A stretch of DNA of 43,189 nt from Rhizaria sp. SCN 62-66. Its lineage: Eukaryota. How positions within the stretch are numbered: position 1 is the first letter of the stretch; each line of letters begins with the position of its first letter. Location: positions 1-43,189 of the forward strand of contig MEDY01000350.1 in the NCBI GenBank assembly GCA_001724265.1. The letters run 5' to 3'. This document shows, in pieces, positions 63 to 43,189 of this stretch. Both the position numbers and the translations under genes were made by a program. Below the pieces are notes generated by a model. It worked only from the letters and a program-made list of their open reading frames with translations, was not told the origin of the DNA and did no database searches.

Positions 63-153
63 AAGAAAAAGACAAATGAAAGAAAAAAAGTGAGTTCAAA
101 GTCCAGAGTTAAGTCAATTGATTGTGAGAGATTAGATTCTCTTGTTTCGTAAT

Positions 154-180: not shown

Positions 181-184
181 GTAC

Positions 185-3803: not shown

Positions 3804-3834
<31 letters not shown>

Positions 3835-6597: not shown

Positions 6598-7283
6598 AGA
6601 GCAAAGCGGGGCGTGACACGATCACGCGAAGATGGGATCAAACAACAAGGACGAGATAGAAAAACAAAGAGTGTACGCGAAATACAAACGAAAATAGCGC
6701 TAAATATGCGCTTGTGGTACTGAATATCGCTTTAGAACTAATGGAAAGAAAGGAAAATGCAAAGGGTTCAAGTTATCGTGGCCAAAGCCGAAGGGAAAGA
6801 GAAGCTGCTTCGAGAGCAAGAGTGGGGAGGTTGGGGGTAACAGGGGGTGGATTTGAGCTTCATAAACACAAACAGAAAACGCATGAAGCAAGTAAAAGCA
6901 TGAAAGCTAATTATTCTCTATCATACTCGCGCGCTATGCGCACAGCACGACGGGAATACTGTTTTTAGCATGTGATTTAGTCCGTGATTGCTCGGTCCGT
7001 GTGACTGTGGGGGCTGGCGACCGTTTGGAGGCTGCGGGCGGGGGAGCATCGAAGAGGGTTTCATTTGCAGCAATCTGGCGTCATTCCGCCGACAATACCG
7101 TCGAAGGTCGTCTCATTGTATATCACCTCTACCGATCTGATATAACTTTTGATTAAACCTCTCCACGACCTTTGCTTCCTGGTCTCCAGCCAAGTAGCGG
7201 AATCCGTCTCGCAGAGCAAGCCCCTCGCCCCCCGCCCCCCGCGCGCGCTTTTCAATATCCACGCCCTCACGTCAGCAACCCCG

Positions 7284-9029: not shown

Positions 9030-9660
9030 GCAAATGTAAGTGTATTTGTAAGGTGGTACTTACATACGTAAAGGGGCTGGCGACTTGAAAAACGCATTCG
9101 ACTTGAAGTTATGATAGAAAATAACAACGAATGTATTGTTTTAGAAGATGGCCAGGGAGGTGATATAAACTGGAAAGTCTATGTTTATTTGTGGAATACA
9201 AAGAATAATGTTTTATTATAAGTCAGTCAAGCGATGCTTTGTAATTCTATGGTTAACTTGTGATTAAGCACGTCGTTCGTATTATGAGAGTGTATTTAGG
9301 AGTCCTTAAGAAAAGAGACGAAACACAAGAAAGAAAGAATAACGAAAAATAAAGAACAAACTCTGGCCATACAACAGTAACTTGTTGTAACAGCGAAGCA
9401 AAGATACATGCAAAGTCAAACGAGAACGAAAAAGTCTGCTGCTTTTGTGTTCCAGTCAAAACATCAGACTTTTCACAAACGTACTTAAGTATTCACAATA
9501 AAAATCGCTTCTGCCAAACCACTTTGCGGATCTTTGTTTGCCGTCATTATTGCCACAATGCTGCGTTATATCCCACCGCAAAGTGGACATTGATCGCGTT
9601 TTCGAGTGATTTAGCGCACGTTGAGCGTGTTCCTTGTGTTTTCACTGCGTTTTTCTCACC

Positions 9661-9760
9661 AGTCACGGTCACTCCGTGTGTTTAGTGTTTAACTCACGGT
9701 CACTCAGTGTGTTTTCACGGTGCTTTCACTTAGTCAGTGTGTGTTGCTCACGGTCACTCA
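9661..9760. repeat. Degenerate ~25-30 bp tandem repeat (TCACGGTCACTCAGTGTGTT-like) in the Sec62 3' flank
   Basis: tcacggtcactc at 9663, 9694 and 9748; partial copy at 9715. Confidence 0.75.
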
Positions 9761-9767
9761 CCACCTC

Positions 9768-11359: not shown

Positions 11360-12429
11360 GATGGGATGTCTTTGGATAAAATTGCAAAAGTAACAACGGC
11401 CTCGTTGAAACGTGCAATCTTGCGCAAGATCAGGGTCAGACCCTCTCGATGCGCTGCTGACCGACCACAAAAAATCCCACCGGCCGACCGTGGGCGACGA
11501 AGACGAAGGCAACTCGGACCGAAAAAAGGCGAAGGGGACTGACTCGAAAAACTGAGAAAGTGTCTATCCTGCACTATGAATATGGGAAATAAAGATAAAC
11601 TAATAAGGGTCGTGTAGACAAAGTTTGTTTATATGCGAAAATGTACTGTGCTGTCCAGAAAACTGAAGATATAAGTGGGAAAAGGCATGTCGGAGGTGTG
11701 CGTGGTGGGCTGTTTAGTTGGGCTTAACCGCGCCTTGCCCGTTCGAGAATCGCCGAAAAGAAGGGCTTCAAGCGGGCGCGGGGAATCATAAAATTGTTTA
11801 TGGAAGTTTGTTTATGCCGTAAATGCGCGTGTTCGTCTTACTTTTTTTTATTAAACTCTAATTGGAATAGCACCAACGGCACAGGAGCTCTTTTAGAGAC
11901 CCCTATTGTTGTTCTTGTCGACCGTCGCTGGAGCCCTTTTTAGCCTGCACGGGACGAGCTCACGCTTCCCTTTGCCAGCCAATACCGGATTTGTCTCAAC
12001 GATCTTAACTCACAAAATAGGCTTCTCCGCCACCGCCCTCTGTTTTCACCCTATAATCTCCTTTCCTCAGCTCTCTATACCGGAAGATTCGTCTCCCCCG
12101 CTCTTATCCTCGAAACCCAACCACTCTCTCGCCGGCCCTCCCTCGCCCGTCCTGTCGCCCGCGCCCGCCCGCCACGCCCCGCGGACCGCGCGCGCTCGCT
12201 TTTGTCGCAGAGAATCTACCCCCGCACGCCCCTGATACCGCGCGCAGCGCCAATTTGGCCTCGCCACTGCCTGTTTTCTAACCGCTAAAGTCAGCAACCC
12301 CACCGGTGCCTCTTTGCGAGTGGATTGTCGTAACTGACCCCTGTCATTCTTCCTTGGCTTTATAACGGCGCGTGCCGTCGCCCTCTGCGTTGTCTAAGCT
12401 CTTTGTGGCGGTAGTAACTGCTCCAACTA

Positions 12430-13977
12430 ATGCCTCCTGTCACCCGCCCCCTCTCAGCAGCAGCAGCCGCCGCCGCCGCCGCTGCTCCCAACCAACAACA
12501 ACAGCAACAGCAACAGCAACAACCGAGCACTAGTGCGACTAACAATGCGGGTGTGACAGGGACGCGTGCCTCATCCCGCCGCTCCACCGCCGCTACCGCT
12601 GCCGCTGCCACTGCCGCTGCCGCCGCCAGCGCAAGCATTTCCACCACAGCTTCCCCTGCGACGACTGGGCTCGTTGCGACTGCCAACTACGCCAACACTC
12701 TCACGGGCCGCAGCAGCAGCAACAGTAACAACAACAACAACAACAACAGCAGCATTAATGCGCACTCGAACGGTAGCGTTACCTCCGGTAATAATAACAA
12801 CAACAGTAGCAACAGCAGCAGTGACAGTGTTGTAGTGCCGCCACAGCATTTCGCCCGCAGCTCCCTTAGGCCCCTCGCCCCGCGGCCACGGCAAATCGCC
12901 TCAGCGGCGCATATTGGCGCGATTGCACTGTCACCGCCGCCGCTGGCTACGATTGCTGAAACAACAGCAACAACAACAACAACATCAGCAACAGCTAATG
13001 ATGATGCGACCGTGCCAAGAGGAACAGTGAACGAAAGTGTCAATGCACCTGCTGTTTCTGCTGCTGCTGCTGTTGGGGCTGCTGTTAGTAGTGTTGGTGC
13101 AGCAATTGCTCGCACCGGCTCTGGATCAAGCGTTAGTGGCAGTAGTAGTACTGCTGCTGCTGCTGGAAAAGGCCGGACGAGGGCGAACAAGTCAAGCAAC
13201 GCTGCTGTATCTACTAATGCCACCGCTAGCGCGACTGTAAGTGCAAAGAAGCAGGGACTGCAGCAACAACAGCAGCAGCAGCAGCAGATTGTCAGCTCTG
13301 GGAGTCGCAGTCCAAACGTTGCTATGACCGCTGACAGCAACAACAACAACAACAACAACGACAACAACGGAATCGATGATGCTAGCGAGGAAGATGAAAC
13401 TGACACCTTCCATGTCACTGACTTCAACCATCATGGACACAGCCACTTAAGCACGTTTCAACGCATGAGCATTAACGTCGACCTTCGCACTCCAACTAGT
13501 AGCAGCGCCAGCAGCAGCAGCAGCAGTGTCAGTACCAGTCCTAATGTCAGTGCTGCAAACAGTGTCAATGCGAGCACTAATGTAAGTGCGGGTGTAAGTG
13601 TGAATGCGAGCCCGAGTGTGACAACGTGGTCAATGCGCAGTGCGACTGTCAACAGCACAAGCCGTAGCATTCGCAATAGCAGCCCTCAGAACAACAGCAG
13701 CAGCAGTAACAACAGCATTCGCAGCAGTCCCAACAACATCAACAACAGCAGCAGCAACAACAACGCTAAAACGAATACTAGCGTCAACAACAACAGCAAC
13801 AGCGACATGTTGATTCCTCCTAATCATATTCATACTACTCACGGCAACCGCACCACATATACGAACGCTGCTGCAACTACTGCTAATACTGCGAACTCGA
13901 GTCCTAACGCGGCTAATGTTACGGCTAGCGGCTTAACTTCGATTCCTGGCTCACAGTCACTCCCTCGTCAGAGCCAG

Positions 13978-14010
<33 letters not shown>

Positions 14011-17000
14011 AGCAATGCTGCGCAAAGCCCGTCCTTAGCTCACAGTCACTCTGCCCACAGTCACCCCACGGGTTCCGGGACCTCTGCTGCTCACGGTCAC
14101 TCCGCGAGTGCGCATAGTCACCTGCACTCTCATAATAACTCAGCATCATCGTCGTCCTCTACAACTGCCTCGGCCGCCTCTGCCTCAGCCTCAGCCTCTG
14201 GTTCAATGTCATCTATGGCGACATCGCTGGCGGCGGCAAATGCGGCTCGTTTGACTGCAGGCCTGCCCACCCCGCTGGCCATCACCCTCGCGACCCCGGA
14301 GACGGCGACCGTCGCCGACGCTCTGCTCCCGCGGCAGCTCGTCGCGGCACTCAACATCACGCTCGCCCGCGCCTGCGCGTTGGCCCCGGCGACTGCTCTG
14401 TCGCGGTACGCGCCGGCGCATCCCCAGAGCCACTCTCAGCATCACCACCAGAGCACCAACAACAATAACAAGAGCAACAACAGCAGCTACAGTTATTGCG
14501 CACAGAACGGTCCTTGTGCTGCTGCTGCGGTTATGGTGTCGAATAGTAGTCATTATAGCGACAGGCGTGGTGGTGGGGTGTCGGACAGTGGAAGGACCCC
14601 CTTAGACGGGGTGAGTTCCCCCTTACCCAGCGACGACATCCCGCACAGGCCGCACGCGCCAAGCCCTTACCTCCCGCTCACTCAAAGTCAAGCCGCATCC
14701 GCGTCTGCAACTGCGACGGCGACGATGGGTACTCAGAATAGTTCAAGCACCCTCCTGCCACTCAGTGACACTGCTATGAATCAACCACACCAGCAGCAGC
14801 ACTTGCAGCCCCACATGTCCCTTCGCCGTCTCCGCACTCTCCTGCACTCGGCGAAGCGGCTCGATCGTGACTGCCGCCGCGCCGCCGCCGCCACCGCTCT
14901 GGCGCGCAAGCTCTCCGGGCTGATCGGAGACCTGGTGCGGTTGGGGGCCTCGGCGGCGGGCGCGTCGGCGGCGGCGGGCGCGGCGGGGGGGCTGGGAGCG
15001 GCACTGTCCTCGCTCAAGACGCCTGAGGCGGAGACCTTGCTGAGGGCTTCGGCGAACCAGCAACGGCTCCGTCAGCAGCAGCAGCAGCAACAACAGACAC
15101 AGGCGCAGTTTCAGTCGCAGCAATCGCAGAGTCAGACGCAGAGTCAGAGGGCAGAGGTACTCAGCGCCCATGTAAGTACCCTAAGTCCTGAAGCGACCGC
15201 TGCTGGCTTGGCCTCCACAGCCGCCTCTGCCGCCGCCAACGCCAGCGCGAGTGCTGTGAATACGATGATGGGTGACTATGACCACTAGCAGCAGCAAGAG
15301 AGCTCTCCAGTTTCTGCCGCGCTGCCGGAAATGGAGATGTTCACCCATCCTGACCCCACCGCGCCCGCAATCGCGAGTCAAATGCCTTATTCGCGGCCTC
15401 AGGCGCTGGCGCTGTCGATTCGTTCTGACTTGCTCGAGCTCAGCAACAACAACAACAACAACAATACCGGCACGAACGGCAGCAACACACCGCAGCAGCA
15501 GCAGCAGCAGCAGCAAGGTGCAGCTGCGTTTTCCCTGTCGCCCACTGCAACAATGCCGAGCACAGGCAACAACAACGGCAGCAGCAGTAGCGCTGTGAAC
15601 AACGACCTGTCCCCGGCTTTGGCGCGGTCAACCCTCGCCCACTTGTTCGAGGCCACCCGCATCGGCCTCATCCGCCTCGTCGAGTCCGAGCGCATCGCGA
15701 TCAAAACCCTTCTGGGCCGGGCCAACGAGGCGCAGACCGAGCCAGTTGGCATTCCGCTGCTGCGGATCGAGCGGGAAGTCGCCGCTCTGCATGCAGCGTT
15801 CGCGTTCTTCCGCGGCATGCCGTCGGCGGGCGCAGTGCTGGCCTCGCTGTTGCACGGCACAAGCCCCACTCCCGCTTCCGTTCCTCCAGCCCCTGCCACT
15901 GCCGCCGCTGCCACTGCCGCCGCCGCCGCTGCCACTGCGAACGATGCGACTGCTAGCTACAATAATATTATGAGTCTGAGCGGCAGCCATCACAACGGCA
16001 GCAGCGGGGGCGTGGAGAGTCCCAGTGACGCTAGCAGCGCTGGCGGTGGCAGAATGAGTATGCTGATTGCTAGCGGAGCCCTGCCTGTCGCTGAGGAAGC
16101 TGCTGCTGCCGCGGTCAGTGCAGCTGCGCTGTGCGCCGCGACGGCAGCGGCCGAGGCTGACCACCTGCAGCAGCAACAGCAGCATGTGCCGCAGATGCAG
16201 CAGCATGAGATGCTGTATCAGCATATGCAGCAACAGTACTCCAGCGCTGGCGATAATGTCAGTGCCGACGGTCTGAGTACCTCTGCCAGTGTCAGCGAGA
16301 GTGTAAGTGCTGCTTTGGGGAAGCGTGCCCGTGTGGCCGCCACCGGAACCGCCGCCGCCACTGCCGCTGCCGCTGCCACTGCTACTGCCACTGCCACTGC
16401 GACAGCTGCTGCGAACAAGGCAAAGACTGCAAAGGCCGCGAAAGCGAGCTCTAAGGCGACAACCAAGTCTCCCAACCCTAAGACGAATCGTTCCACCAAC
16501 AGCAGCAGGAGTTCCGGTGAAGACCCTGCTGCTGCGGCTGCTGCTGATGGTAGCAGCGGCTTTGGTGCAGCTCCAAACAACGGGGGCACTCCTCTGGTGT
16601 TCACTGCAACCGTTACTGGTGGCGCTCAGGTGAAGGCGAGTGCGGGTGTGAAGTCTCGTAAGGCCAGCTCAGTCGTTAAAAACAGCAGCAACGATGATGA
16701 CGATGACGATGATGGCAGTGAGGATGATGAGGGCGATGTAAGTACCTTGGTCCACTTACCCGCTCCCACAGTCGATAACACCACGAGCACGAGTACGATC
16801 GGCGGAAGCGGCACTCTAAGGGGCGGCAATCTAAGGGGGCTGAAGCGTCCACTTAGCTCGCCTGACTCACACTCAGCCGCTGCTGCTGCTGCCGCCGCTG
16901 TAGCTGCAGTGACTGCCGCCGCCGCGTCTCTGTCCACTGCAAACGAGTCTTCCCTTAACGGCGTCGATAATCCTAACCTCGTGGACTACGACAGCGAGAA

Positions 17001-17433
17001 CGCGTTTGCCAACTTTGACAACATCAACAACTCTGCTATCGACGTCAACACCACAGCTGCCACTGCTGCTGGTGGTGAGTTTGACTTGAGTCTGAACGTT
17101 GCCGCCGCCGCAACCGCCGGTGCCGCCGCTGGGGTAGATCCTGGCGCAGACGCCGCTGACGCTTTGATCACGGAGCTACAGCCTCAAAACACTCAACACC
17201 CAGTTACGGCCGCCTTCTTAGACGTCATCACTTCGCGCATGCTGCTGTTCTGCAACGCGACGGATGCTTTGCGTGTTCTCACGCGCCGCCGCATCTACTT
17301 AGCCGCGCTGCTGAAGCGGCTGCTCGTTGTAAGGGGGTACTTAGCGGGCGTCTCTGTCCGCATGTCACATACAGTCGCTCAGATCCGCTGGCTGGCACAA
17401 ACACTACTCGCCTCTGCCCCCCCAGTACAACAA

Positions 17434-17467
<34 letters not shown>

Positions 17468-20400
17468 GAGAACTCGTGGGTGCTTCTGACGTCAGTACTC
17501 GTGCGCCCCCGAGCGTGAGTTACAACATCGGCAATGCGTGGGGACTCGCAGATGCGCTTGAATTAGCACACCCCACGTCTTTCACTCTCAGCGCGTGCAA
17601 CAACAACAGCAACAGCAATAGTGGTGGCAACGGCACCGGAGCCTCGGCCTCGACCTCAGCCTCGGCCCCTGTCTCAGCCTCTGCAAGCCCTGGTAACAGC
17701 AATGGTGGCAGTGACCCTTGCTCCCTGTTAGCCTGCTCCACAGCTCGGACTGGGAGCACTGGTGGTTTCATCCCTTTCGCCACCGCCGCACACAGCGACG
17801 TCGTCGTCGCACTGAACCACTTCCCGCAGCCGGCTTCACAGCACGGCGGCGCTGGCCCCGGGTTAGACCCCTTTGCGTCCCCCATCCTTACGGTCAGTAG
17901 CGGCGGCAGTAATCAGGGGTCTGTGGCGACGGCGCCTGCGGCGGCTTCGGCGGCGGCAGCAGCGGTGGCCGCGGCGGCGGCCGCGGCGATTAGCGCATCC
18001 GCCACTCGCGCCAACAGCTCCTCCCTCTGCCCCGCAACAGAAGCCAACGCCCACGCATTCGGCCTCATCGCCCACCACTCCCCGTGTCCCGCCGCCATCG
18101 CCATCGGGCCGCTGGACGTGACCGCCACTGCGGCGGCCACCAGCGCGCCCGCGCCCTCGACCTCCGCCCTTATGACGACGCACCATGCTCACACCCACGC
18201 TATAGACAACGCGGCAGACGCAGCAGGTGCGACTGCGGTCACCACGAGTACCAGCAGTTCTCTCCCGGTCTGCGATGGTGTTCATACCACCGGCGACGAT
18301 CAATCATTTTTCGCGTCCCCCAGCGAAGCCGATTTTTTCGGCCCCGCCGACGCCGCTTCGCTCGCCGCGGCACTCGTCCTGCCGACAGCCCCCACGGCCC
18401 CGCGCGCGCACCCGCTGCTGCTGGCGCGCGCATACGCCAACGACACCGCCGCCACGGCCGCGGCGTCCGCGCTGGCTCAGTCGGCGCTGAGTCTGGTGCC
18501 TCAGCGCGCGTTCAGGCATCCGCCGGTGAGTTTGGCGCGGGTCGGAGCGCCGGCGGCGGACAGGAAGTGCCGCGTCTGCCACGGCCGGGGCGCTATGGCG
18601 CTGCAGCGACTGGACAACAGCAACGCTCTTCGCAACAATCTTAGTAATAACAACGATGACGACCACGAAGACGAGAGCTCCGCGAAGTCGACTTCTTCTA
18701 AGGGTGTACTTCGAGGTGTAAGTGGAGGGTGGGAAGATGCTGGTGACCCGCTCGGCGCGCTGCCACTGCGTCACGTTGCTGTCTTTATCACTGAAGCCTG
18801 GGGCAACAACACTGATTCCCTTATCAACGACATTAGTCAGAAGAATTCTCTCTCTCGTAACACTCGCACTCACTCTCTTCTGGTTCAGAGCAAGAATGGC
18901 GGCGACTGCGAGGCCGATGCGTCACTGGCGGCTCTGGCAGCGCCGTACCGCTGCCACTGCGAGCTGCCTCCTCTGCCGGCCTCAGTCTGGACGCGGGTGC
19001 AGAACATCGCCTCAGAGCCCCTGACAGCGACTGCGTCCCCCTTAGACGCGCCCGTCGGCACCCCTCAGATCGCGGCCGACTCCAACACCAACGCCAACGC
19101 GTTGTCAGCGGCGGCCGAGGCGCTGGTGACTGCGCTGGCGCCAGACCCGCGGGTGCGCACGGTCACGGGTACCCAGAAAAGCAAGACGGGGGTGACTGGG
19201 GTGGGTAATAGCAAGCAGAGGAAGAATCGTAAACTCAAGAGCCAGAGCCAGAGTCATAGCCAGCAACAAAAGAGTCAAGTGGCTGCTGTTGTTGCTGCTG
19301 CTTTCGGTGATATCGACGACGATGATGATGAGGATGACAGTGTCAGCCACAGTAGCAATGACGGTAGTCATGGCAGTGGCAGTGACGACAGCCGGCAGAA
19401 TGCAAGTACCCCCTTGGACGACGAGGATTCGACGGTAATGCTGCCGTCTGGCAGCGCTGCGCTGTGGAGCCAACCTGGGCAGTCGCTACTGACCCACGCT
19501 ACCAAGGCCCTTACACTGCAACAACAAAGCAATAGCAACGTTGCTACATCCTTGAACAGCTCTTCTGTTGTTTCTGGGTCTAATGCTGGTCGTTGCGTGA
19601 TTGCAACGCCCCAGTTTGGCACGATTGCAGCCGCGTCTGTCGCTTTGGTGCCGTTTGTCCGCCGTGCGAAGGCCAAGGAAGTGGCAACGCAGGTGTCCCA
19701 CTCGCACCAGCGTCTAAGTACCCCTGCTGATCTAAGTATCCCCTCAGCCTCAGTCAAGAAGACCTCCGTGGTTACGACGACGACCACTGTCACCGCGACC
19801 GCGACGACAGTTGCGACGACTGAGCTGGCCCTGCTGGCCCTATCAGCGCGGGCTCAGGTCACCACAGCGCTGGCGGCGGGCGCGAATGCCGCGGATGCGT
19901 GGCTCGCTGCGACCGCGACGGCTCTCGTCGAAGCGCAGTGGCTCCCGCGGTCGCTGCTGAACGCACAGCCATCGCCCCAGTCGTCGTATGCGACCAACGA
20001 GCACCCCATGAGTGCGCTGTTGCGTGCGCTGCGCACGAAAGTTAAGCCGCCTCGCCACAACAACAATGACAATCACAAGACTAGCAGTTCTGCTAACGCT
20101 GCGAAGACTGCGACTGTCAATGACGACGATGACGCAATTGCATCTGCTTCTGTGTTGTCGCCATCTTCATCCAAGGGCGCTGCCAGTGAGTTTGGCACTT
20201 ACCCACAGCCGCAGTGGGCGTGGGACACTTACAAGGGCGACGATGACCCTTTAGACTCAGCGCAACCTGTGCGCACTGCAGCTCAAGAAGCGCAGAGGAG
20301 GGCGTTCCCGTGTGGCCGGCTCCGGTTGCGGCGTCACACTGGCGCACAGTCACGCTCAGAGGCACAGTTTGTCAAGTCACAGCCACAATCGCATGCACAG

Positions 20401-23400
20401 TCTGCTGCGGGTGTTGATGGTAGCTCTGAGAGTGAGCGCAAAGAGGATGACATTCAGAGTGCCAGCGCTAATGCGAGTAGTAACGATGTTGGCGACGCGT
20501 GTTTTGACAGCGATATTGATGATGACGACGCTTTTATTCTCAATATCACGAACAAAGCGAATACTAACAAGCGTGTTACTACCTTTGGCGATGATCTCAG
20601 TCCTTTTGGCGAGGATGTCAGCACTCTGTCGACCCCTTACGTGGACTCGGACCCTTACAGCGCCGGGTACTTAGACCATATCGAGGCCCTTACATCCCTG
20701 CTCGACTCGGGCCACGCTCTCGCATCAACTGCGGCCCGCCTGCTCACCCTTACCCCGTCTAAGTACCCTCTTAGCCCGCGTAAGTGTTCCTCCGCGCGCC
20801 GCTTAGCCGCGTTCCTGGTCGCCCGCTACTGCTTTTGTGACCGCTGCTGCGCCCAGTTAGGGCTCAGCTTTGTCCTGCCGGACTCGGGGCCGGTGCCGAC
20901 GGGGGCCACGTTGACTGGCGTTGGAGCACGCTCGGTGCAAGTCATCACGACAACAACGCAAAATACCACTGCGTTCACGAACGCAACCTCGAGTTTGAGT
21001 AGCGCTCGTGCCGGTGCCTCAGCGATGAGCGATGACTCTGCCGTGAGTGCAAGCATGAGTGCTGGCGCGACCCCCTTAGACAGTGTAAGGGTGACCGTGA
21101 GCCGCCGCGTGCGCCGCACCGCTTCCGCTCCCCCCATCGCGGGCTTCGCAGTGACTGACTATGCGGCCAACTCGATCGTGCTGCCGCTGCCGACGCCGCG
21201 ACTCGCGCCGTTGCCTATCGCGGGCTCTGCTGTCACATCCACGAACAACAACAGTGGCAGCAACAACAACAGCAGCGGCTATAGTGTTAGCAGCAACAAT
21301 CCGGATGCCATGACTGCGAATGTCAACGGCGGTGCGTTGACCGAAGTCACTGCTCTCCGCGGAACCACTGACGGCTTAGCTTTGATGATACCCCACGGTC
21401 ACCACCACAGTCGCAATGCCAGTGGCGGCGGCGGCGGTGTGGGCACCGGTGGCGCTCACGGTCACTCTGGTAGTAGTTTCAGCGCGCCTGAGAAAGGTTC
21501 GCTCCGGTCACTGGCGTCATCGCGCCGCTCTTCACTCTCCAACAGCACTACCAACAACAGCAACAACAACAGCAGCGCCAACGCTCCCGAAGTGCAGAGC
21601 GCTGTGCCGCAGTTGCAGCTGCAGCTGCTATCCCCGGTGCTCGTGCGGGCGCAAGCGGCGAAGATGATGTCTATGCTGCGCCTTGCACACTCGCTCCCGT
21701 TCATCGTCACCAACTACGCCAACAACAACAAGGCCCGTTTGCGCTCACAACAACAGCAACGATTGCGACAGCAAGCCTTCTGTCTGTCACTGTCGCAGGC
21801 ACAAGCGTCGTCGGTGCTGCCGCTGTGGCAGCCGATGCCAGCGTCGAACGGCTTCATCGTCCTCGCACCACCCGAGTCTGTTGAGCTCACATTCAGCAAC
21901 GACTCCAGCTTCTGCTCTGACCCCGCCAGCAACGGCTACGATGGCAAACGCTCTCGCACCCGTGCCAGTGCCAGTAGCGCGGGCTCGAGCTCGAGCTCGA
22001 GTGGTGTTGCTTCAGCGTCTGATCGCAAGCAACAGCTGCGGCGGCAGAAGCAACAGGAGCGGCGGCAGAAGCAGCAGCAGCAGCGGTTGCTGTTGCAGTC
22101 GCTGCTCGGTGATGAAGGCCAGGGCGCGGCGAAGATCTCACAGCTTTCCTTTGCCAACGCTGTGATTAACGGTACGATTGACATCAGTCACGAAGACCAA
22201 GGCGTTGCCTACCAAGCTGGAAACGAAAACAAGAGCGATGAAGAGCAAAAAGTCAAGCCGCCTTCTGGTGTCAACACTGCGAATGACTGTGAGCTCTGTG
22301 ACTGTGGCAGCTGCCACTCGTTCAACAACAACAGCGCTGACAGCGGCTCTAGTGCGAGTGCGAATGCAATGAGTGACGATGTTGTTGTTGTGACGAGGAC
22401 TTGTACAGATGCGTGTAAGTACCCCTTAGACTCTGACCTTGTCGCTCTAGACACGCTTTACCTGCCCTTGTCCAACACCAGCAACGATAACGAAAGCATC
22501 ACCACTCTGAACACCCTCCTCCGCAATACCTCCAGCAGCAACGCATCGTCTTTAAGTCCTCACAGCGACAACGTGGCCGCTGCGAGCACTGCGTTATCGG
22601 CCGCGCTGCACTCCGCCGCCGCCCCTGTGCCCGCCGCGGCCGCTCTGCTCACAGTCACCCACTCTCTATCCAGTCTCTGCACGCTGGCGAGCACGTTCGC
22701 GGCCGCCGCCGATCTGTGGTGCTGCGACGATCCCGCCATCGACGCCGCCGCCGCCGCGCTCGTGTCGACCTCGTTCGCGATCCAGAGCATTGGCAACGTC
22801 CACGGCACGCTCGGCGTCGCGAGTATTTACGACACCCCGCGCACGCCGCTGCATTTATCGCGGCATGATACTTTCTTGTTCCCTGGACTGGCGGAAATCG
22901 GACTGGGCAGCGCGTCTGCGGCCGCTGCAGTCGCGGCCGCGGCGGCGCAGGCGACCAGCGCGAGCAGCATCAACGCGAGAACTAGCAGTAGAAACGCTCA
23001 CAACAACGCAAACGATGGCAACGATAAAGACGACGATCCTCTGGACGAGAACGCTGCTACGAGTGCGAATGCGAGAGTCTTTGACTCGCCTGTCGTCGTC
23101 GCAGTCACCACGACCGCAGCCACTCCGTCTTTCACGCCCATCAACGCCGCCGCCGCCAACATCGCCACCAACATCGCCACTACCAGCAGCGCCGCCGCTG
23201 CCAACGCGCCTCTCAACGACCTCGCTGCCTCAAGCTCTGGCTCCGGCTCTGACGCTGGCGCTAGCGGCGGCGTTGGGGCTGGGTCGAGCACCACTGGCAC
23301 GACGGCCAATAGCATCCTCTACACGGTCGCCGATCTCGTGCTCATGTGCTACGCTGAGGCCGCCGCCAGTCTGCGCGACCTCGAGCAGGCCTCTCTGCTG

Positions 23401-26400
23401 CGGCAGCTCCACCTGGCCTCCGCGTTGCCGCCCGCCGCGTGGCAGGTCGAGTCCGCGGCGGCGGCGCGCGCGCTGGGGGACATGCGCGCCGAGGCGACGA
23501 GCCAGGACTACGCCATCGCCGTCCGCGAGTCTGCTGCGCGCCGCGACCTCGAGGCGCTTAAGGTCACGTTCCACCTCGTTCTGCAGGCCACGCACTCGCT
23601 GGCGCCACACAGCACCGCGTATTCGTCCCTGGCGCGCGCGCTGACGAGGCTGCCGCCCGTGGTGATCCAGTCGGGGCTGATTCGCTGCCGCGCTCTGGCG
23701 CAGTACCAGCTACTGTCGCCGCCGATCCCGCTGCCGGGGCTCGGCGGCAACGGCGGCTGCAGGTTCTATGCGGCCTACGAAGGGCGCGTTTTCGTCATCG
23801 AGAAACTCGCGAATGCTCTCAAGCAGCTTCCCCTGCTGACGAATGCGAGTGGCATCAACGCGCTATCGGGAGGGGAGTTTGCGAACGGGAATAGCTTTGC
23901 TGAGACTGATGCTGCTGTGAAGACTGAGGCTGGTGATGCTTCTGCTGCTTCTGAAGAGCAACAGAGTCCTAGTGCTCAGGCTTTGAACCAGAGTCAAAAC
24001 TTAGGTGGTCTCGGCAGCCAGTCACCCTCAACTCTCTCCCCCACCGCCTCCAACAACTCTGGCGCCGGCTCTGGCTCTGGCTCTGGCTTGACAGCTCACA
24101 GCGCCATTGACGGCTCTGCGGCCGCCAACGGTGAAGAGAGCGGTTTCACGCTCCCGTCATCAGCGCTGCAGCAGCTATCCAACGTGTTGTGCATGCGCAT
24201 CCTCCCTCTCGGCCAGCAGTCGACTCTGGTTGCGGCGTCCCGTGTGGCCACCAGCTCCGCCTCCTGGGGCGCGCCGGCCTCAAGCAGCACTGTCCGGTCA
24301 AACTTCGCTGATTTCAACATCGCGCCGATCCCCGTGCCGTCGCGGCCGCAGATCCCCGTCGCCGTGTCTATCAGCCTCGCCGGCACCAACAACAGCGGCG
24401 GCGGCGGCAGTCTCGGTCAGTCTGGAATGGGGCCGTGCTCAGCCGCCGCTAGCGCCGCTGCGGGCTCGATGGCCGCGGCGACGGCGGCGATTGCGGCTGG
24501 TTCCAGCGCGGCCGCCTCGTCTCTGCTGCTCGACAACCCGCCCGCGCCGGTGGTTATCGTGCCGCACCACGTCTTCGCCGACGGCGACGACATCTTCATC
24601 GCGACGCAAACCCCACCGCTGGGCACGCTCGACGCGCTGCTGCTCTCGCGCGCCGTGGCGCCCATGTCGGCGCGGCTGACGTTTGATCCGCTCGCGGTCG
24701 AAGATTACGACTACGGGTTTGATGTCGAGAGTAACGACAATGATGGCGACGACGAAAACGCGGATAACAACGCAAAACACGCGAATGTCGCAGCAGCTTC
24801 AAGTCGCAACAACAGCGGCAAGAGAACTGGTTCCGGCTACAGTTACGACAAGAATAAGACTGGATACAACGTGTTTATCATGCAAAACAGCCACTCTAGC
24901 TCTTCTTCAAGTCGCGATAAGACTGTCTCCGCTGGTGTTGCGAAACAGCGGTCTGCAATGTCGTCGCACTTGCGCCTGCTGCCCCCCTTTGCCTTGCCCC
25001 GTGGCATCGCACCCCAACTACGCACGTCCCGCGCCCCCGCACACCTGCTGCGGCTGCTTTTCCACCGCTTGCTCACGGCACTCGCGTCTCTGCACCGTGC
25101 GGGCGCTAGTCACGGCAATTTGCACCCGGGAGCAGTGGCGTTGATTCCGCCTCGTCTCTCTGCTCTCGTCCAGGTCCGTTCACAAATCATCCACTCAACT
25201 TCTCCCGATATTAATATCAATTAATCAATTTTAATTTGTAGATGTGTCTTTAAATGATCTATATAATATCACTAAACACTTGTTCTCGCTTCCATATATC
25301 CCCACTTTGTTTGCTGGCTTCAGGACGGCGCCGCGACGCCCCTCGGCTGCCTCCCCACCCGCGCCGCCGCGACACCGATTGGGCTCCCCGCCGTCTCTGG
25401 CCCCGTGCGCTGGCACGCCGCTGACCCCGAGACCGCGCTGCGGGCGCCGGCCACCGCGGCGGCCCCCGGTGCCGCAAGCGCGTCTGGGGGCGTGTTGACG
25501 CGCTACAACGACTGGTTTGCGCTCCTCGACAGTCAAAACAAGAACAACGGCACCGACGCCACGACAGCTAATCCTGCGATGCGGCCAGGCGTCGTTGGCG
25601 GGCTGTTGGGCGGCTGGTGCGAGTGCAAGGACTACAGCGACGGCGACGACAGCAGCACGACAAACAGCAGCGGCAACGGCAGCAGCAGCGGCAGCGCCAG
25701 CGACATCGACGACTGCGATGACTCGGATTCGGACTCGGACTCGAGCAGCAACCGCGTTGTTTCCTTCAGCACCAACGCTAATGACATCAACAGTGACGAT
25801 GACGGCGACGTGTACTATGCGAGCGCGATCACCACGAGCAAGAGTCGTCACCTCAATGCCAATGCAAGCGACGCTGACGCTGATGACACTGATGACACTG
25901 ATGGCGACAAGGATGACGACGATGACGACTGTGAGACTGCTGCTCTGGCCCCCTCATTGCTCTTGGCCCGCGCACGCCGCCACTCCCGCCCCACCCCCGC
26001 CACCACGGACGTCTTAACGATCGCTCTCGGGACCAGTGAGTCTTCTCGCCTCGTCCCAACGGCTCACCTACGGCCGCAGTGGGCGCCGCCGCTGCCGCCC
26101 GCGGCCGCACGTAAGTTCGACAGCGCGCTCCCCTGGGGCTGTCCGCTGCTCAACTTCAAGAACTCGAAGAAGAAGAACAAATCGTCTTCCATCAAGTCTT
26201 CATCCAATAATGGCGACGACTTAACAGGCGGATTAACTAAGATTAACGCCGCGTCTAAGCGCCGCGGCATGCGCCGTCCGATCGCTGCCTGTCGCCGCTG
26301 CTCTGCGCTGCTGTCAACCGCAGGCAGCGCTGTCGGCGCCGTGGCGACTGAGAACGAGTTCGCTGACACGGTCGCGAGCGTTCTGCCGTCGTTTCATCAT

Positions 26401-34918: not shown

Positions 34919-35406
34919 TGAGGTAATTTTTAGAACCTATGCATGATCACGTGCTGTGTTGTTGTTCTTGCTATCCACGAAATGTCAACTCTCGACTTTA
35001 ATATTTTGAAAGTACACATAAGTTACAAAGGTCCTTTTTGATAGAACAGATCTTGTCTACAACTAATCCTACTTTGATTACTCACAGTTGTCTCACAACT
35101 GTCAACTGTGAGGTAAAATTTGCACAGATTACGCGAATTTGTTTGAATAACTTAATTCTCATATCATTAATACATACATATGTCCCAGTATTTTTACTCA
35201 TGTAGAGTTGTCGAAGAATGTATTCGCATGTTGGACGAGCATGCTTTGGTGACTCTATACGTCGTGTCTTCGGCCGACTGACCGACAAGCTGCTTGTTTA
35301 AGAATGACTACAATGTCCTACGCTGACGGACTTCGAGTTGCACTTATTGTTATAAGTACTACCGGTTAGTCGTGTTTATCGAAACAAAACGCTGCGCCTG
35401 TGGCGC

Positions 35407-35916
35407 ATGTTGCTTCATGGCGCGTTGTCGAGCCCAGCGCATACAAATGTGGCGACTATGATGACGTGCTCGCAGTCACTCTTGCCCTCAGATCGGGCAA
35501 CATGTGGCATGGAACGCGCATTCGTAGCCAACACAAAACTGGAGGCCCAGGACGAATGTCAGCGATCCGAGACAGCAACAAAGACATGGAAAGCGGAGGG
35601 CCAGAGATGTTGCCTTCACAAGGATGAGAGTGGAGCGGGCGAGATGATGTCCGAAACAATATTGGCTTGGGGTATGCCCAAAGAAGCAGCTTCCGCTTTG
35701 GAGGAGCGGGTGCCCGACCTGATGAGACTAGCACAGAGAAACATGGGAATTGAGAGGGTCCAAGTCCAAGGTGGAAAAGGTCGATTAGACCAATTCCATC
35801 AGTTTGTTCTGGGGAATTCCAGAACTCTGGAATTGCTCACAGTCACTTTTCCGAACAGACGAAACTTCACAGAGTGGAATATGCAACATACCTGCTATTT
35901 CTCACCTCTTTTGTGA
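35407..35916 (+). other. Unassigned 169-codon ORF of atypical composition; possibly a small gene or a decayed element
   Basis: ATG-initiated and purine-rich, without the low-complexity style of neighbouring genes. No family recognised. Confidence 0.2.
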
Positions 35917-36628
35917 CACTTTGCGCCCCTTCGCCCTTCGCGAAGGCACGCGCCAACCACTGACGTGACGTGTCGCACTTTCTTTCCCGGACCATTACGC
36001 GAGTATGTATCGCTTAAGAGAAACGATACGGATTTGTTTCAATATATCACTACATAATACATGTTATAAACGCGCCTTCGTCGTGATTAAACTATTAAGA
36101 CTATTTTAATCACGTGTTGTGTCATTTTGAAGAGCCAGAAGTTTGAAACACCTCGAGGCCCCCTTCTCGCTTTTTCATAGTTGTCTTACAAGCTGTCAGA
36201 GGCGCGCCGAGCCATCCTGGCAGCATTTCTTAATGAAACTATACATTTACATTCGGATCATTTCACTCAGTCTTGTTTTTGATATGTTTTTCTGTCTAAT
36301 GGGTCGTCGCAAATGCTGGACCTGTTTTCGGCCCGATTACTTAGCCGCCAAAAAAACGCCCCCGCCCCTCACCAGACTGCAGTCAAAACTCGACTGTCAC
36401 CTTGCAAAGCCCAATAGATCTCTGTATTTGTGCACTTAGCCGATGTCATTTTGTGAAAAACTTTTTGGTGACTTTTTCTATGCAATTTCTTTCTGTCACC
36501 TTCGTTCTTTTTTGTAGGCCCTTGATAGACGGACTTTTATACCCCCTCCTCCTCCGAGAAGTTTTTCTCCTTTTGGAACGCTTAACTGCGTTGTCCTGCC
36601 TCCCAGACACCACATAGTGGCGCTTATA

Positions 36629-39600
36629 ATGAAGCTGGCTTTTTCCAGGGTTATAACACGCCTAGTGGTTATTGTGGCACTTTGGTGCACGATATCTGCG
36701 GCCACCAGCGTTCCTCGAGCGAGCTACAAGGCCGAGCTTGTGCCCACTTCAACGACCAGCTACCCGAAATCTGGGTTTACATTGATCACTCTCGGCGTCA
36801 ATGTCACCGGCATCCCGAATGCCCAAGACATTCGCGTTGAGCCCTTTTGGTCGTGCGCATCATCAAACGCAGAAGACCACCTTGATGTTTCGAGCGTCTC
36901 AGCCTTCGCCAAGACCTCCAACTGTCCTTCCGTCCACAAGCGCTCTGAGTCAGCCTACCTGCTCTGTAACTCGGCGACATCAACCTGGTTTACTCTGCGC
37001 GGCATCCGCGTCAATCACAAAGCGCACAACTCTACAACCGCTCCGCTGTCGATCATTGCAGACTGCTTCCGGCTCCGCGTCGGCGGCATCAACGCTGTCC
37101 CAGCGCCTGAGCTCACCATCGGCCCGATGGCCGAGATCAACAGGCTCCTCGCGCTGCCACCGCCCGTCACAGCCTTCACAGTCACCCGCGCCGCCGTCTC
37201 GCTTGCGCCCGTGATCCGCTCGCCCTTCGAGGCCGCCATGAACGCCGTGCTCGACCTTGCCTTCACGCTGCCCTACGCGGCGGACGCTTACACAGAGCTC
37301 GGCATCGTGCTCGCCACCGACTCCGGCCTCGCTTTCCGCGACGACGCCACCGACCCGAACTCGGGCGCGGGCTCCGGCGCTAGCGATGGCGCCGGCGTTG
37401 GCTTTAGTGGCGTGCGCTTGAGTCTTGTGTCGGGCGATACAGACCACTTTCTCGACAGCTGCGTCACTAAGCGAGTCAGCAAGCACCGCATCAACCTCCG
37501 CTGCGTTGGGCTCACTGCGGGTGACTGGGTCTTCCGCCTCAACCCCGTCACGATTGCACCCGCCGCTCACAGCAACGGTGCTCTCTCGGCGCTGCCCGCG
37601 AACGCAGTCACGCTGGTGCTCAACAACAAACTCACGTACACTGCAACGAGAACGACGACAGCGACTGATAACACGGAGGGTGCTGTCACGCTGACTGAGC
37701 TCCCTGCCCTGTTCGAGGACGACAAGGCCGACTCTAACACCTCCAGTTTTGTCACTCTTGATCGCAGTACCGCGCGTCTCACCGTCTACACCGCTGCTCT
37801 CGCCACTGATCCTATTCTTGACATAGACACTAACTCTGTCGCAAACAATGCTGCGACGCGTGTCGCCCACGTGCGCATCGCTCCGACTCGCGACGCGCAG
37901 CGCCTGGCGCGCTGCAACGCGCTCGAGCTCGAGTTTACCCCCGCGCTGGCGCTCACTACGGTCGCGGACGCTGCGATCAAGGCCTCCGCGTCGCCGTTTC
38001 TGCGGCCTGTGTGCCGCGAGGCTCGCAGTGTCGACCACGGCTCTGTCGCTGTGTTGGCATGCGACGTGCCGGCGGTCGCGGCTGTGACCATGTTCGTAGT
38101 CGCGCTCACGGGCGTCCGTGAGAACCACAGCAACGGCAAGAGCACGAACGGCAACGAAGACGTGAGCGCGTGCTTTGACGTCGCCGTCACTGTCGACGAA
38201 GCGCCACCGTTGGCGAGCTCTCACAGTCACGCGAGCGGCGCGCGCGGACTGGGGATGAAGACGCAGGCCTTGGCACAGGCACGCGCGCAGGCACAGGCGC
38301 AGGCGCGAGTGGTGTCGTCGCAGCCGCTGGTAGACGCTGATTTTAAAATCGCCTGTGAGGCAGAGCAACAATTGTCGAATTCAACTGTGGTGAACATGTC
38401 GACTGCAGCCCTCAAGTCTGACAATGATAGCTATAATAGCGTTTCTGTTGCTGCAACAAAGCCGCATGGTCGGAAGTTTAAGACACTCTGTGGTGGTGGT
38501 GGTGGTAGCACTGTTACTCCTGAAATTGATGACACTGAAACGATTTATTTTTCTGTCATCCCGGAGTTCCAAAACGTGCGTGGCCTACGTCTGAGTGAAT
38601 TTTCGCGCATTGGTAAGCTATGGTTGTCTGTTTATCACTCGATATCGGGGAGTGCGCGCACAGTCAGTTTTGTTTCATCTTCCACTGCTACAACCCGGCT
38701 TAACTTCTCTTCAATCACGTCGGACTCTGTCTCGGGTGGCTGTACCTTAGACTCTCTTTCAACGTCAAAGATTATTCTAAAATCGTCGTCAGCTTATGGT
38801 GCGGCCGATCCATTTATATGCTATGTGGATAATGTCATCATCACATCGACAGTGCAGGAGATATCTTACACTATTGCGGCCAGTGATTTTTCGTTCACGG
38901 AGAGTACAGGAAGTGTTTCACCGACCGTGGCCCTGTCACTTGACTGCTGGTCTGCCTTCACGTTTAATTACGAGTATTTCCATGGTGGACCACCGCAAAA
39001 TTACTATTTCTCGCCCTATACGACAGCGAACTTTGCGTCCCGCTACACTAGTCGCACGTATTATTTGTATCTTGTTTTCCGCTTTATGCGTCTTGGAACC
39101 GCGCTTCCCAGCAGCACGACGACGATTACTATTACTGGAGCGTGTACTAGCATCTACGCACTACGATTATATGAATCCACGACCGACTTATCGTCGTACT
39201 CATTCACTTTTTCCACTTCTTCGAAGATGCCGACGACTGATACGCTTTATCTTCACGCGAAGGTTGGCGCCATTATCGGTCCTGTGCCAATGTCGTGCTT
39301 TTCCATTTATGATGTTGGTACATCGGCCACTCAGTCACCGACGTTGCCAACCGAAACCTGGGGCTTGTCGACGACGCCGGGCGCGTTTGTGTACCATGTC
39401 AACGGCGCAGCCGCTGTGAACACTGTTGACCAGCCCACAGCGACCATGATTTCCCTCACGCGCGAGTTCGGTTTCAATCCTTCGCTCGTGGGGACCCTTT
39501 CTACCTCACTGCTTACCGTGTCTATCGCAGGTTCAACCTGCTTTTGCCCGAGTCAATCTTCTGTCCTGGCTTCCGTTTCTACTGTGGGAACGTCCACCGC

Positions 39601-42600
39601 GGTCTCATGCAATATCGCCGCAACGTCGACAACAGTGGGCGTCACTCTCACGTGCCCTCCACTCTCGGGCTCGACGTGGAACATCTTTGCTATCACCTGT
39701 GTCGGCGGTTTTTCTCTCTCAGCGTTGGACTCGTGTCTTAGTAGCTCACTTATTGGCGCTGCGACGTTCAGCGGCACATATGCTGATGGCACGTCTTTTA
39801 CTCTCAGTGCCGCTGACCCTGTGACGATGGGTAATACCCCAGTCGGCTTCGCGACAGTGAAACTGAGCAAACGTGCTGCGTCGGCAGCAATTGTTACGAC
39901 TAATCCGGTTTCAACACCGACGACGGTGTTGGTAACGTTTTATCTCTACTACGTCAACTTACCCACTGGATCTAGTGGAATTGCGTTCAATTATGACTCG
40001 TCGTACTACTCGTACAGCTCGACCTCGATCACGTTTGGCTCGACCTATTTGTCGACAGGCTGCACAGTGAGCACGCAACTTAACATTACATGCAGCTCTG
40101 CATTTTCAAAACGCTATGACAGCGCGAGTAGTGATTATATCCCTAATTTTACCGCATCTATGCTTGAACCCAACGGTCTCAAAGCGGTGAATCCTCCTAG
40201 TTCCGCCCTCACTATCAGCTTGGGTGGCTCCTCTTATGGATCAGTGACAGGTATCTCGTGCGACCAAAGTGAGGTCCGATACGCGTATCTTGTCACTTCT
40301 GATGGTTACACACAGAGTGGCTCGACTTTTTATGACTCGATCAGGATTTTCTATTTGCCCCTCTCGCCCGCGGCATACGGCACGATGAATTTCTATTTGT
40401 CTACTCCGCCGAAACTCGACAGCACAGTCACATGGGTTGGCTCAACGACTAAGTCTGGCGTAACGCCCACGATCGCACAAGCATCGACCACTTCCGAAAA
40501 AATCACCATCACGAGCTCAATCTACGGCTACTACTCTGTCTGGACTGCTTCATCTGGTGTCAGCGTTACCTCCAGCGAAGCCGCATCCTACCCGAGCGGA
40601 TTTGATGGCAACTTCTACTATCTCGCGCTTGGCACTATGAATTTGACGGCATCTAGCGGCTCTGTTCTGGGTCCCTACGTTGACCAGAGTGTGGCCACAA
40701 CGTTCTCCTTTACCACGACCGCAGCCGCCGTGACGGGCTACACATCGGCGTCCAACCAGCGTACCATTACGGCCACGCTAACCGCAGTCATCGGTACGAA
40801 TGGCTCCTCGCGCATTTTGACGATTTCCGTGTTGGCGTCCTGTTCTCTGGACCTCTCTACCGCCACTGCGACGGGCACTTTGACCAAGACGGGCTCCGGG
40901 AGCACGTACATCTCGCTTACTGTCCCGGACTCGATCGCAAAGGGCATGACTGCCACGACATCGATTGCGGGCATGGTTGTAACCAGCACGGCTGGTGCCA
41001 CAACTTGGCCGTCGACAGCTCTTGCGACGAGTTGTTTTACCTCGCAAATCACAATCAGCGGCTCTGCTGTAGCCGGCACTGCGACAAGTGACAACACACT
41101 GCCACTGTTCCTTTCAGGCTCCCCGGTCACGTATAACTTCTTTGCGCCCGCGACCGTGGCTTTGAAGTTTACTGTACAGTTGTCGACGGCAACGTCAGTC
41201 TCGGCGCGCTTTACCCGCTATTATCATCTGTCACAGTTGACGATTATGTTTATTGCTTTGACTACAGGCACATCCGTGACTTACACGGTTGCAGCCACGT
41301 GCACAGGGTATTATTTTCTTGTCTCTGACGCTTATGTCAGCTCAACAACAGTCACTGTGTCGCACGCGTCAGCCCATGTTGTTTCTTCTTCATCCCTCTA
41401 CATTGCGATCGGCACTTAGTACTTGCCTTCGACGCTGCTTCTTAAGCAGAACTGTTTTACTATCACCGCCAGCAGCACCACCCTGACCGCAATCTACCCA
41501 AGTGCCACCGTGGCGATTGTGCGCCCATCGACATATGTCGCGATTAATCTTGCTTACGTCACGGCTCAAACGCTGACTAATCCCCCCGCGTCATCGACCT
41601 TCACGCCTAAGTACGATATCTACTTTTTGCCGGCGAGCGATGTCACGACGTCGAGCAAGATTACGTTTAAGGACTCACTCACGTGTGTGTGTAGCACCAT
41701 GACTGGTGTCTCACTCACCACGTCATCAGCAACGTCCAGTAGCTCAAACATCTTGGTGCCAACTATTTCGACGCAAATGGCGCTAAGCAACAGCACCGCG
41801 ACAACATTTGAACTTAAGAGCTCCGTGTCCAGTGCGGCCTTCAAGTGGATCATTTTTTCGCTTACGTGCCCGACTGGGATGACAATGACAGCGCTGCACA
41901 GCTGTTTCCCCACTCAGACCCCCCAAGCGCTGACCGTGACGATCGACAGCGAGTCGGCACAAACGTCGTATGATCCTCTCTATAACACCGGCAATCAAAT
42001 CTGTCATGCGTTCCGCTACGTCAGCCGCTCAACCAACTCGCCCGGTAGTTTGACCACAGATCTGGGAACGAACTCGATCGTCGTGAACAAACTACAGTTT
42101 GTGTTTTTCATCTTCACGCTCCCGAAGACGCAGTTCATAGTCACGATGAGCCTGCCTACGGGCCAGGTGACTTCTACGGCAGGCAAGGTGATTACCCCTG
42201 TGACGACGGCGCTGTCATCGCAGTGCACAGGGACTGCGACAGCGTTGAACTGCACACTCACGAGCAAGGATGTTGTCAACACGGTTGAGCTCGAAGGACT
42301 CACGGGCACTCTCAGTCAGACGAGCAACATGGCTAACGCAGGGCACATCACGCTTGCCTACACTGACGCAGTCGGCTATGGCATTCTTGCGTCGTACTAT
42401 GCCCCGGTGTCCGAGTACACTGGTCAGTATTTTGGCTTCCAAGCGTCTGCACGCAACCCAGTGAGTTTCTACGACTCAATCCGCTTTACACCCGTGTTTA
42501 TGATCGCGCCACTGCACCCCACACTCGCCGATGTTGCGACTGTGTACTATATCAACTACACCTGCTCCGGACTCACGGTCGACACGAGTGTCACACTTGT

Positions 42601-43189
42601 CTCAGAGCGCGCTACAGGCTTAGTTGGTACCACTGCGCTCAGTGCGGCGTATGCGGCATTCACGCTCACATCAGGCACTGGGGATTACTTCCAGTTTGCG
42701 GCTACTAACGCCATGGCTATTTCGCGCAGTAACTGGGCGTCGACCTATGTGTCTGGCTACGGCGCAAGCTGCTTCGCGGCGAGCGCAGGCGCTGCTGCAT
42801 ACTCCTCGTCGACGCCGCAGACTAGCATCTTCGGGCCCTATTCCCTCGCGCTGCCGCCGCCGCTGATCGCGAGCTTTGCAGCTGGTCTTGCATCTGCAAC
42901 AACAACTGCGACTCTGGCATCTTATGGTCTTAACATCATGCTCGCCCCGCGACTCCTCCTGCCGACTAAGACGAATTTCATCGTGTACATTGACGGCTCT
43001 GCTTGTGGACTTACCACGGCATCGTTGCTCACTTTTACAACTGCCAGTACGATCTCTGTCAAGAACATGGGCTCAGGGGCGATGGGATTCACTTGTTCGA
43101 AGACGACTTCGACAACCACGCAGTTCGGATTCACCTGTACGGGCACCTACAACTACTCCGTGAGTGGTGATTTGATGGTTGTGATTACG
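36629..43189 (+). CDS. Large secreted/cell-surface Ser/Thr-rich protein with degenerate Cys-containing repeats; 3'-partial; one in-frame TAG at 41417
   Basis: Signal-peptide-like MKLAFSRVITRLVVIVALWCTISA. Manual translation shows the same frame stays open for 590 codons after the TAG, to the window end, with unchanged amino-acid style. Confidence 0.8.

Follow-up and report, generated by a model that had tools for sequence, protein, structure and literature searches.

Does UAG still mean stop in the organism behind contig MEDY01000350.1? This contig, deposited under Rhizaria sp. SCN 62-66 (GCA_001724265.1) and analysed here from position 1 to 43,189 (43,189 nucleotides, nt; "the window"), carries two very long protein-coding frames, each of which is interrupted by a single in-frame TAG. 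One lies at 41417-41419 in a gene for a repeat-built, putatively secreted protein, referred to here as gene 7, and the other at 15286-15288 in a giant low-complexity gene. An original prediction, made from the letters of the window, had taken the TAG at 41417 as a candidate for a stop-to-sense reassignment of UAG only. Our analysis establishes that the base at this site is real and that the frame behind it is coding-like. Two cases in 43 kilobases (kb) nevertheless cannot separate a changed code from ordinary broken genes, and breakage is somewhat likelier. We put the probability that the code is standard and that both TAGs are genuine premature amber codons at roughly 55%.

The TAG at 41417 is indeed in frame and ends a stop-to-stop open reading frame (ORF), 36518..41419, and the 590 codons behind it (41420..43189) are stop-free up to the end of the window, both as predicted. 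The first ATG of this ORF, at 36629, opens a signal-peptide-like start; 1,596 codons precede the TAG, and gene 7 comprises 2,187 or more codons in total. While the stretch 41420-43189 contains 0 stops in 590 codons in frame, the other two frames contain 23/589 and 22/589, and the chance of such an open frame is of the order of 1e-10. The stretch is also coding-like in its GC content by codon position. The absence of an intron donor upstream of the TAG was likewise borne out: neither GTNCGY nor GTRNGY occurs within 600 nt, and nothing around the TAG is intron-like.

For validation of the base itself, contigs of four of the 13 listed sequencing runs were compared with the window over 23190-43189, a range that does not include the site at 15286. 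TAG at 41417 is supported by DNA contigs of runs X1 and X4 and by an RNA-library contig of run X6. The X1 contig (35823-42440) shows 0 differences at a depth of 37, with neighbouring contigs at depths of 35-41. A heterozygous site would split the contig and halve the depth; since the X1 contig runs unsplit and at full depth across the TAG, the site is not heterozygous. X1 is also not merely the window's own data: at 42941, 42967 and 43027, its entire depth carries other bases than the window. The X4 contig, from another study and of low depth, covers 40224-41437 with 0 differences and ends 18 letters past the TAG, too close to count as bridging the site. A third study contributes the X6 contig, assembled from a polyA RNA library, which spans 41284-41596 at a shallow depth of 4.3 and keeps the TAG, its sole difference being at 41328 (Asp to Gly). 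Another X6 contig, 33587-33907, begins 3 nt inside the intron 33584-33772, holds nearly all of it and enters the next exon. Unspliced RNA, a splicing intermediate or DNA must accordingly be part of the X6 library. What X6 documents is a TAG that occurs in an RNA library and has not been spliced out of the contig concerned; its evidence does not extend to mature mRNA. Run X5 yielded short contigs only, none of them covering the TAG at 41417. Among the 15 of 547 contig joints listed, GCG-repeat noise dominates, and a spliced form may exist. Finally, the 1,596-residue ORF that ends at the TAG is identical to a database protein (P0121), which is found on four contigs of public assemblies. The TAG at 41417 is genuine and not an assembly error.

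The second in-frame TAG, at 15286-15288, is likewise present in the assembled sequence and joins the ORFs 12418..15288 and 15289..25224. In the low-complexity part ahead of it (12430-15285), 0 of 951-952 codons are stops in frame versus 24/951 and 57/951 out of frame. The region 12430-34918 is apparently one transcription unit of about 7,000 codons with at least five introns and with poly-Q, poly-N, poly-A and Ser/Thr runs. Besides its C-terminal HECT domain the predicted product shows a weak match to a kinase C-lobe (26.1 bits, below the Pfam cut-off of 31.7), and Pfam returned no match for the parts 12430-25173 and 31778-33238. A frame break (frame 0 to frame 1) lies near 32015-32090 in a GC-rich GCN repeat, without an AT-rich intron. 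Between 32020 and 32299 the long X1 contigs are interrupted; frame 0 runs to a TAA at 32176 and frame 1 has an ATG at 32189. The break may be an assembly collapse, a second lesion of this gene such as a true frameshift, or the boundary of two genes. A local stem of about 16 pairs (15300-15342) begins about 14 nt past the TAG. Exact look-ups of five candidate ORFs around 15286 found none on record, and word-indexed protein searches across each TAG returned no match, probably swamped by low-complexity words.

What does the TAG at 41417 interrupt? The internal repeat of about 715 residues noted in the original prediction is real but much diverged: its two copies align at an offset of 717 residues with a score of 271, compared with 130.5 +/- 14.6 (maximum 168) in 60 shuffles. 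Neither gene 7 nor its relatives matched Pfam, and a PDB profile search with gene 7 was negative. A HMMER scan of 1.84 billion representatives with gene 7 retrieved nine proteins with E-values up to 0.001, one of which is its own upstream ORF and eight of which are relatives at 25-35% identity. Gene 7 is a member of an orphan multi-copy family whose proteins are predicted to be secreted, are rich in Ser/Thr and consist of modules in which cysteines are conserved. One relative (P0126) has a signal peptide and an N-terminal region resembling that of gene 7. Three of them (P0122, P0126 and P0127) continue unbroken through the column of the TAG, which belongs to a variable loop between conserved blocks: copy 1 and P0126 have I, P0122 has P and P0127 has Q. 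The run data compared over the site are near-identical to the window, and the family members that inform the column are distant, at 22-28% identity. Because the column varies in this way, no amino acid can be assigned at 41417. In the six-row alignment, with the TAG at position 131, the residues C92, L98, C143, C220, C222, S233 and C293 are invariant; as they lie on both sides, the TAG cuts a conserved module in its middle. A structure prediction of the gene 7 region with AlphaFold2, based on the six-row alignment, gave a mean predicted local distance difference test (pLDDT) score of 50.5, with values below 50 around the TAG, and the model was not used. A metagenome scan with the ORF downstream of the TAG and a viral-contig scan with P0130 gave no match.

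The family offers further cases of copying and interruption. In addition to the window's own 42444-43090, X1 and X4 both contain another version, about 94% identical to it, in which about 6% of the bases differ in 42541-42780. Because its depth equals that of single-copy sequence, it is a separate copy rather than an allele, and it probably represents either a recent paralogue or a further repeat module past the end of the window. Two contigs in public assemblies, of 58 kb and 124 kb, seem to derive from this organism; the longest one that carries P0121 measures 58,166 nt. The relatives P0122 (740 residues) and P0123/P0130 (1,773 and 1,803 residues) apparently share a longest contig of 124,639 nt, and P0121, P0122 and P0123 are each found on four contigs; that P0122 and P0123 occur on as many contigs as P0121 suggests a paralogue in the same organism. 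P0122 ends with "...SFSFAG" and P0130 starts with "MAPLTDFF...", and against P0127 and P0125 exactly three columns are missing, without any junk tail. The break in the protein records resembles what a further in-frame stop would leave if two more codons separated it from the next ATG.

How rare is TAG inside genes here? The 11,910 modelled codons contain 2 TAG, 0 TAA and 0 TGA in frame, so that the prediction's own caveat, only two cases in roughly 12,000 codons, holds. From the usage of CAG (333) and the ratio of TTG to CTG (122:330), an established Gln synonym would be expected about 120 times, and TAG is about 60 times rarer. It is also absent from the 3,354 codons of the six gene models with Pfam domains (GNAT, PLRG1, SURP/G-patch, the GTPase exon, Sec62 exon 1 and the HECT part). 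That both interruptions are TAG weighs little, since, given the codon usage here and an assumed transition bias of 2, TAG would arise from 56% of random single-base nonsense mutations (58% in the giant gene and 49% in gene 7). Two lesions would accordingly both be TAG with a chance of about 0.28. At the visible gene ends TGA (2990, 9027, 9768) and TAA (3361, 34916) were found as predicted, with TAG at 0/5. Five gene ends provide almost no statistical power: if TAG is assumed to make up one quarter of stops, 0/5 would still occur about one time in four. TAA certainly terminates in this organism, because the HECT profile ends two residues before the TAA at 34916.

Under a standard code with two premature amber codons, both TAGs would have arisen from sense codons by a single point mutation each and become fixed in a population that is nearly clonal, and both lesions would sit in very long, fast-evolving genes. 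The TAG at 41417 would end the gene 7 product after 1,596 residues, midway through module 2, and the more than 590 open codons behind it would be a young relic or would be reached by background leak only. The TAG at 15286 would most simply be a CAG-to-TAG transition heading a Gln run. We infer that ribosomes would stop at the TAGs, that the lesions would be recent and that the truncated products would be tolerated. This scenario is supported by the rarity of TAG, by its absence from genes with known domains, by the mutational bias towards it, by the Gln-run context of 15286 and by the variable column at 41417, and further by a gene family that looks prone to copying and breakage, as seen in the second copy of 42444-43090 and the P0122/P0130 break, and by the frame break in the giant gene. 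Multi-copy families of surface or secreted proteins contain nonsense-truncated members and pseudogenes. Gene 7 resembles them in its single premature stop and its fast-evolving, repeat-built, secreted product, with a near-identical second copy and other interrupted ORFs beside it. Unlike the pseudogenes of such families, it shows no decay behind 41417 (590 codons without stops or frameshifts, cysteines kept), and an unrelated giant gene is similarly broken. Several observations speak against premature amber codons. Two lesions among about seven genes in 43 kb are many for a working genome. If the parts 3' of the TAGs are untranslated, the lesions must be very young: in-frame stops number 0/590 and 0/3,295, against 0.026-0.047 per codon out of frame, and all four invariant cysteines 3' of the TAG at 41417 (C143, C220, C222 and C293; C92 lies 5') are retained in gene 7. 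Of 31 variant codons 3' of this TAG, compared with the paralogue and with strains, 13 are synonymous, 18 are non-synonymous and 0 create new stops, where about one in four would be expected to be synonymous without selection; these counts are small. Likewise, the TAG at 41417 stands at full depth in X1, the same 1,596-residue ORF occurs on four contigs, and 0/5 genes end with TAG. Ordinary nonsense alleles would be a routine result, yet also a caution against basing claims on the genetic code on as few as two in-frame stops when the genes are long and of low complexity.

That UAG is sense genome-wide, by a rare or early-stage reassignment or a standing suppressor tRNA, with UAA and UGA as sole terminators and both genes intact and translated through, is unlikely. 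TAG alone breaks the frames and ends none of the five genes; the downstream frames are open and keep the GC pattern by codon position and the family cysteines; the variants downstream of 41417 lean synonymous. The TAG at 41417 is fixed at full depth and recurs in the RNA-library contig, a probable paralogue (P0122/P0130) seemingly has another clean in-frame stop, the TAG at 15286, if read as Gln, would lengthen a Gln run, and the lineage is an orphan one whose PLRG1 groups with metagenome proteins only. In sharp contrast stands the scarcity of the codon, about 60 times below that of a settled synonym and with no instance in genes with known domains. In known UAG-only codes, according to the cited passages of PMC5304391, a gene contains UAG some five times, and the codon sits at conserved positions. 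Here both TAGs occupy variable or low-complexity positions, which leaves their meaning unassignable, neither a tRNA nor eRF1 lies in the 43-kb window, and five gene ends are almost powerless. In the rhizarian exLh (UAG = Leu) the same passages report 384 in-frame UAG codons in 71 genes, with 82/86 on hyperconserved Leu positions, and gene ends of 56 UAA and 15 UGA; for Iotanema spirale (UAG = Gln) the gene ends given are 104 UAA and 15 UGA (PMC5304391). As far as these passages go, the window resembles both in that only UAG lies inside frames, UAA and UGA end genes and the in-frame codon is supported by reads (here at 41417), and it differs from exLh in that its 11,910 codons include just 2 TAG, which occupy variable positions and lie outside conserved genes. 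The pattern of exLh and Iotanema, a UAG that recurs, also in conserved genes, and stands for one amino acid, was not found in the 43 kb examined. Independent UAG reassignments are described for phyllopharyngean ciliates (in the part cited of PMC11687900), and an excerpt of PMC10553269 describes a ciliate that translates UAA and UAG as two different amino acids; on these partial accounts UAG can change its meaning apart from UAA, as it would here. Unlike in ciliates, the window has GC-rich exons, introns of 150-189 nt, GTACGT donors and TAA as a proven stop. The literature searched, supplements aside, held nothing pertinent on a described wastewater eukaryote with a variant code. The more specific proposal, a UAG-only code change at an early, low-usage stage in a protist lineage widespread in wastewater reactors, with UAG either rare or efficiently suppressed, is doubtful to the same degree; under it, the other clean ORF breaks of the gene 7 family would also be TAG. 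If true, it would add another to the few nuclear codes in which UAG and UAA are parted, in a new eukaryotic lineage, and a codon that is still rare would represent a stage that is debated by codon-capture and ambiguous-intermediate models and hardly ever seen.

The remaining explanations retain the standard code or remove one of the two cases. Site-specific leaky termination at both UAGs, with a short and a long product per gene, would account for open and conserved downstream frames. A C at position +4, with CAG as the next codon, constitutes a leaky stop context; the TAG at 15286 has both, and the local stem follows it by about 14 nt. This explanation is very improbable, as no motif is common to both sites (TAC TTG follows 41417), folds of the 120 nt past each TAG are no more stable than those of shuffled sequences (z-scores +0.41 and +0.40), and extensions of 590 to over 6,000 codons would be exceptional for readthrough. 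We give an equally poor chance to the idea that only 41417 needs explaining, the TAG at 15286 being an error or minority variant of this assembly or the normal end of a gene ahead of a second one. Read support is indeed confined to 41417, ATGs follow at 15331 and 15337, and the assembly has its frame break in the GCN repeat near 32015-32090. On the other side, the window matches other data exactly wherever checked (long X1 and X4 contigs with 0 differences; metagenome contig L001 with 3,569/3,569 bases), and a spacer of about 42 nt that is GC-rich would be unlike the AT-rich spacers of the window, which measure 276 nt to about 1.7 kb. Splicing could remove the TAG as the end or the inside of an unconventional intron, and TAG is a common acceptor in this organism. 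At 15286, a GTAAGT at 15172 would define an in-frame intron of 117 nt ending at the TAG, and at 41417 a GTCAGC at 41336 would define one of 84 nt in frame. Both candidates are shorter than 150-189 nt, lack a pyrimidine tract and have a GC content of about 0.5-0.61 (0.61 in the 117-nt candidate) versus 0.23-0.38 in known introns, and about one in-frame GTRNGY per 600 nt is expected by chance. The 84-nt stretch, moreover, aligns as coding sequence with copy 1 and the relatives, and the X6 contig is continuous through it. The check for a 3' splice site at the TAG of 41417 thus found no matching intron features, and splicing is extremely improbable. Just as improbable is a repair of the transcripts by A-to-I editing that turns UAG into UGG, so that apparent pseudogenes of the genome would be mended in the RNA. 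Filamentous ascomycetes carry out such restorative editing in their sexual stage; in the cited portions of PMC11156358, PMC10776026 and PMC5496914, it targets an A after U, hits UAG and restores genes with in-frame stops. To the extent of these portions, the window resembles the editing targets of Fusarium and Neurospora in that the genes are broken by UAG in the DNA and otherwise intact (PMC10776026, PMC11156358), and TAG alone interrupts the frames here. By contrast, the X6 contig reads TAG over 41417 and shows no edited base (at a depth of 4.3 it could derive from pre-mRNA or DNA, and a single shallow library may miss editing confined to one stage), neither TAG lies in a predicted hairpin loop, and the PLRG1 tree does not place the organism among the ascomycetes. 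A slim remainder of probability falls to none of the readings listed.

Table. Coordinates of the two in-frame TAG codons, of the genes that carry them and of the other annotated features of the window.
Feature	Position	Strand	Remarks
Gene 7	ATG 36629 to past the window's end	+	carries TAG 41417-41419
Gene 7 part 5' of TAG	36629-41416	+	1,596 codons: N-terminal region, repeat module 1, first third of module 2
In-frame TAG	41417-41419	+	context GGC ACT TAG TAC TTG
Gene 7 part 3' of TAG	41420-43189	+	590 codons, homologous to P0123/P0130, P0124, P0125, P0129
Repeat copy 1	38636-40678	+	residues 707-1387 of translation from 36518
Repeat copy 2	40739-42841	+	residues 1408-2108; TAG at residue 1634
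Giant low-complexity gene	about 12430-34918	+	C-terminal HECT domain (Pfam)
Low-complexity ORF 5' of second TAG	12430-15285	+	952 codons
Second in-frame TAG	15286-15288	+	context GAC CAC TAG CAG CAG CAA GAG, head of Gln run
Exon 3' of second TAG	15289-25173	+	3,295 codons; gene continues through introns 25174-25323, 28306-28470, 29387-29548
Introns of giant gene	25174-25323; 28306-28470; 29387-29548; 33188-33358; 33584-33772	+	
TAA stop of HECT gene	34916-34918	+	HECT profile ends 304/306, at residue 379/381
EF-Tu-type GTPase exon	112-1209	-	Pfam
GNAT acetyltransferase	1604-2992	+	Pfam
TGA stop of GNAT gene	2990-2992	+	then AT-rich spacer 3067-3342
SURP/G-patch protein	3361-6282	-	Pfam
TAA stop of SURP/G-patch gene	3361-3363	-	
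PLRG1/Prp46	7536-9029	+	Pfam
TGA stop of PLRG1/Prp46	9027-9029	+	
Sec62	about 9768-11563	-	Pfam; last exon sits behind intron with GTACGT donor
TGA stop of Sec62, last exon	9768-9770	-	

The window as a whole is nuclear eukaryotic DNA with a GC content of 0.47-0.66 and genes on both strands (Table). The five definable introns on the forward strand measure 150-189 nt, have a GC content of 0.23-0.38 and YAG acceptors, and all five are consistent in phase. Their donors are GTACGT (three introns), GTCCGT and GTACGC, and a CTAAC-like branch site was seen in at least two of them. TAG is the acceptor end of the introns 29387-29548, 33188-33358 and 33584-33772 and of the last Sec62 intron. Intergenic spacers elsewhere in the window are AT-rich. 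ARAGORN and Rfam detected no tRNA in the window, and no other Rfam family was found in it either.

The organism is distant from those named in the databases, its PLRG1 being at most 50-63% identical to database proteins. In a FastTree reconstruction, which is weak as it was built from 31 of 120 listed matches and has no support values, the PLRG1 of the window groups with three metagenome proteins only, outside the sampled fungi and animals. An Atlas look-up of the GTPase exon gave no informative taxon, and a scan of genome contigs returned bacterial WD40 proteins only. The metagenome scan with PLRG1 returned L001, a contig of 3,569 nt from the Joint Genome Institute (JGI) that corresponds to 6598-10166 with every base identical, so that the organism occurs unchanged in another data set; beyond L001, relatives reach about 55-60% overall, and two of them (L013 and L014) reach 72% in their best segment only. 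By shared 31-mers the stretch is present in 11 runs from bioreactors, wastewater and activated sludge, which stem from seven studies, with four runs holding most of it.

At the left end of the window, the GTPase exon encodes an N-terminal extension of 164 residues ahead of the G domain, and past an intron the gene leaves the window. This layout presumably resembles that of eRF3/Hbs1-type factors.

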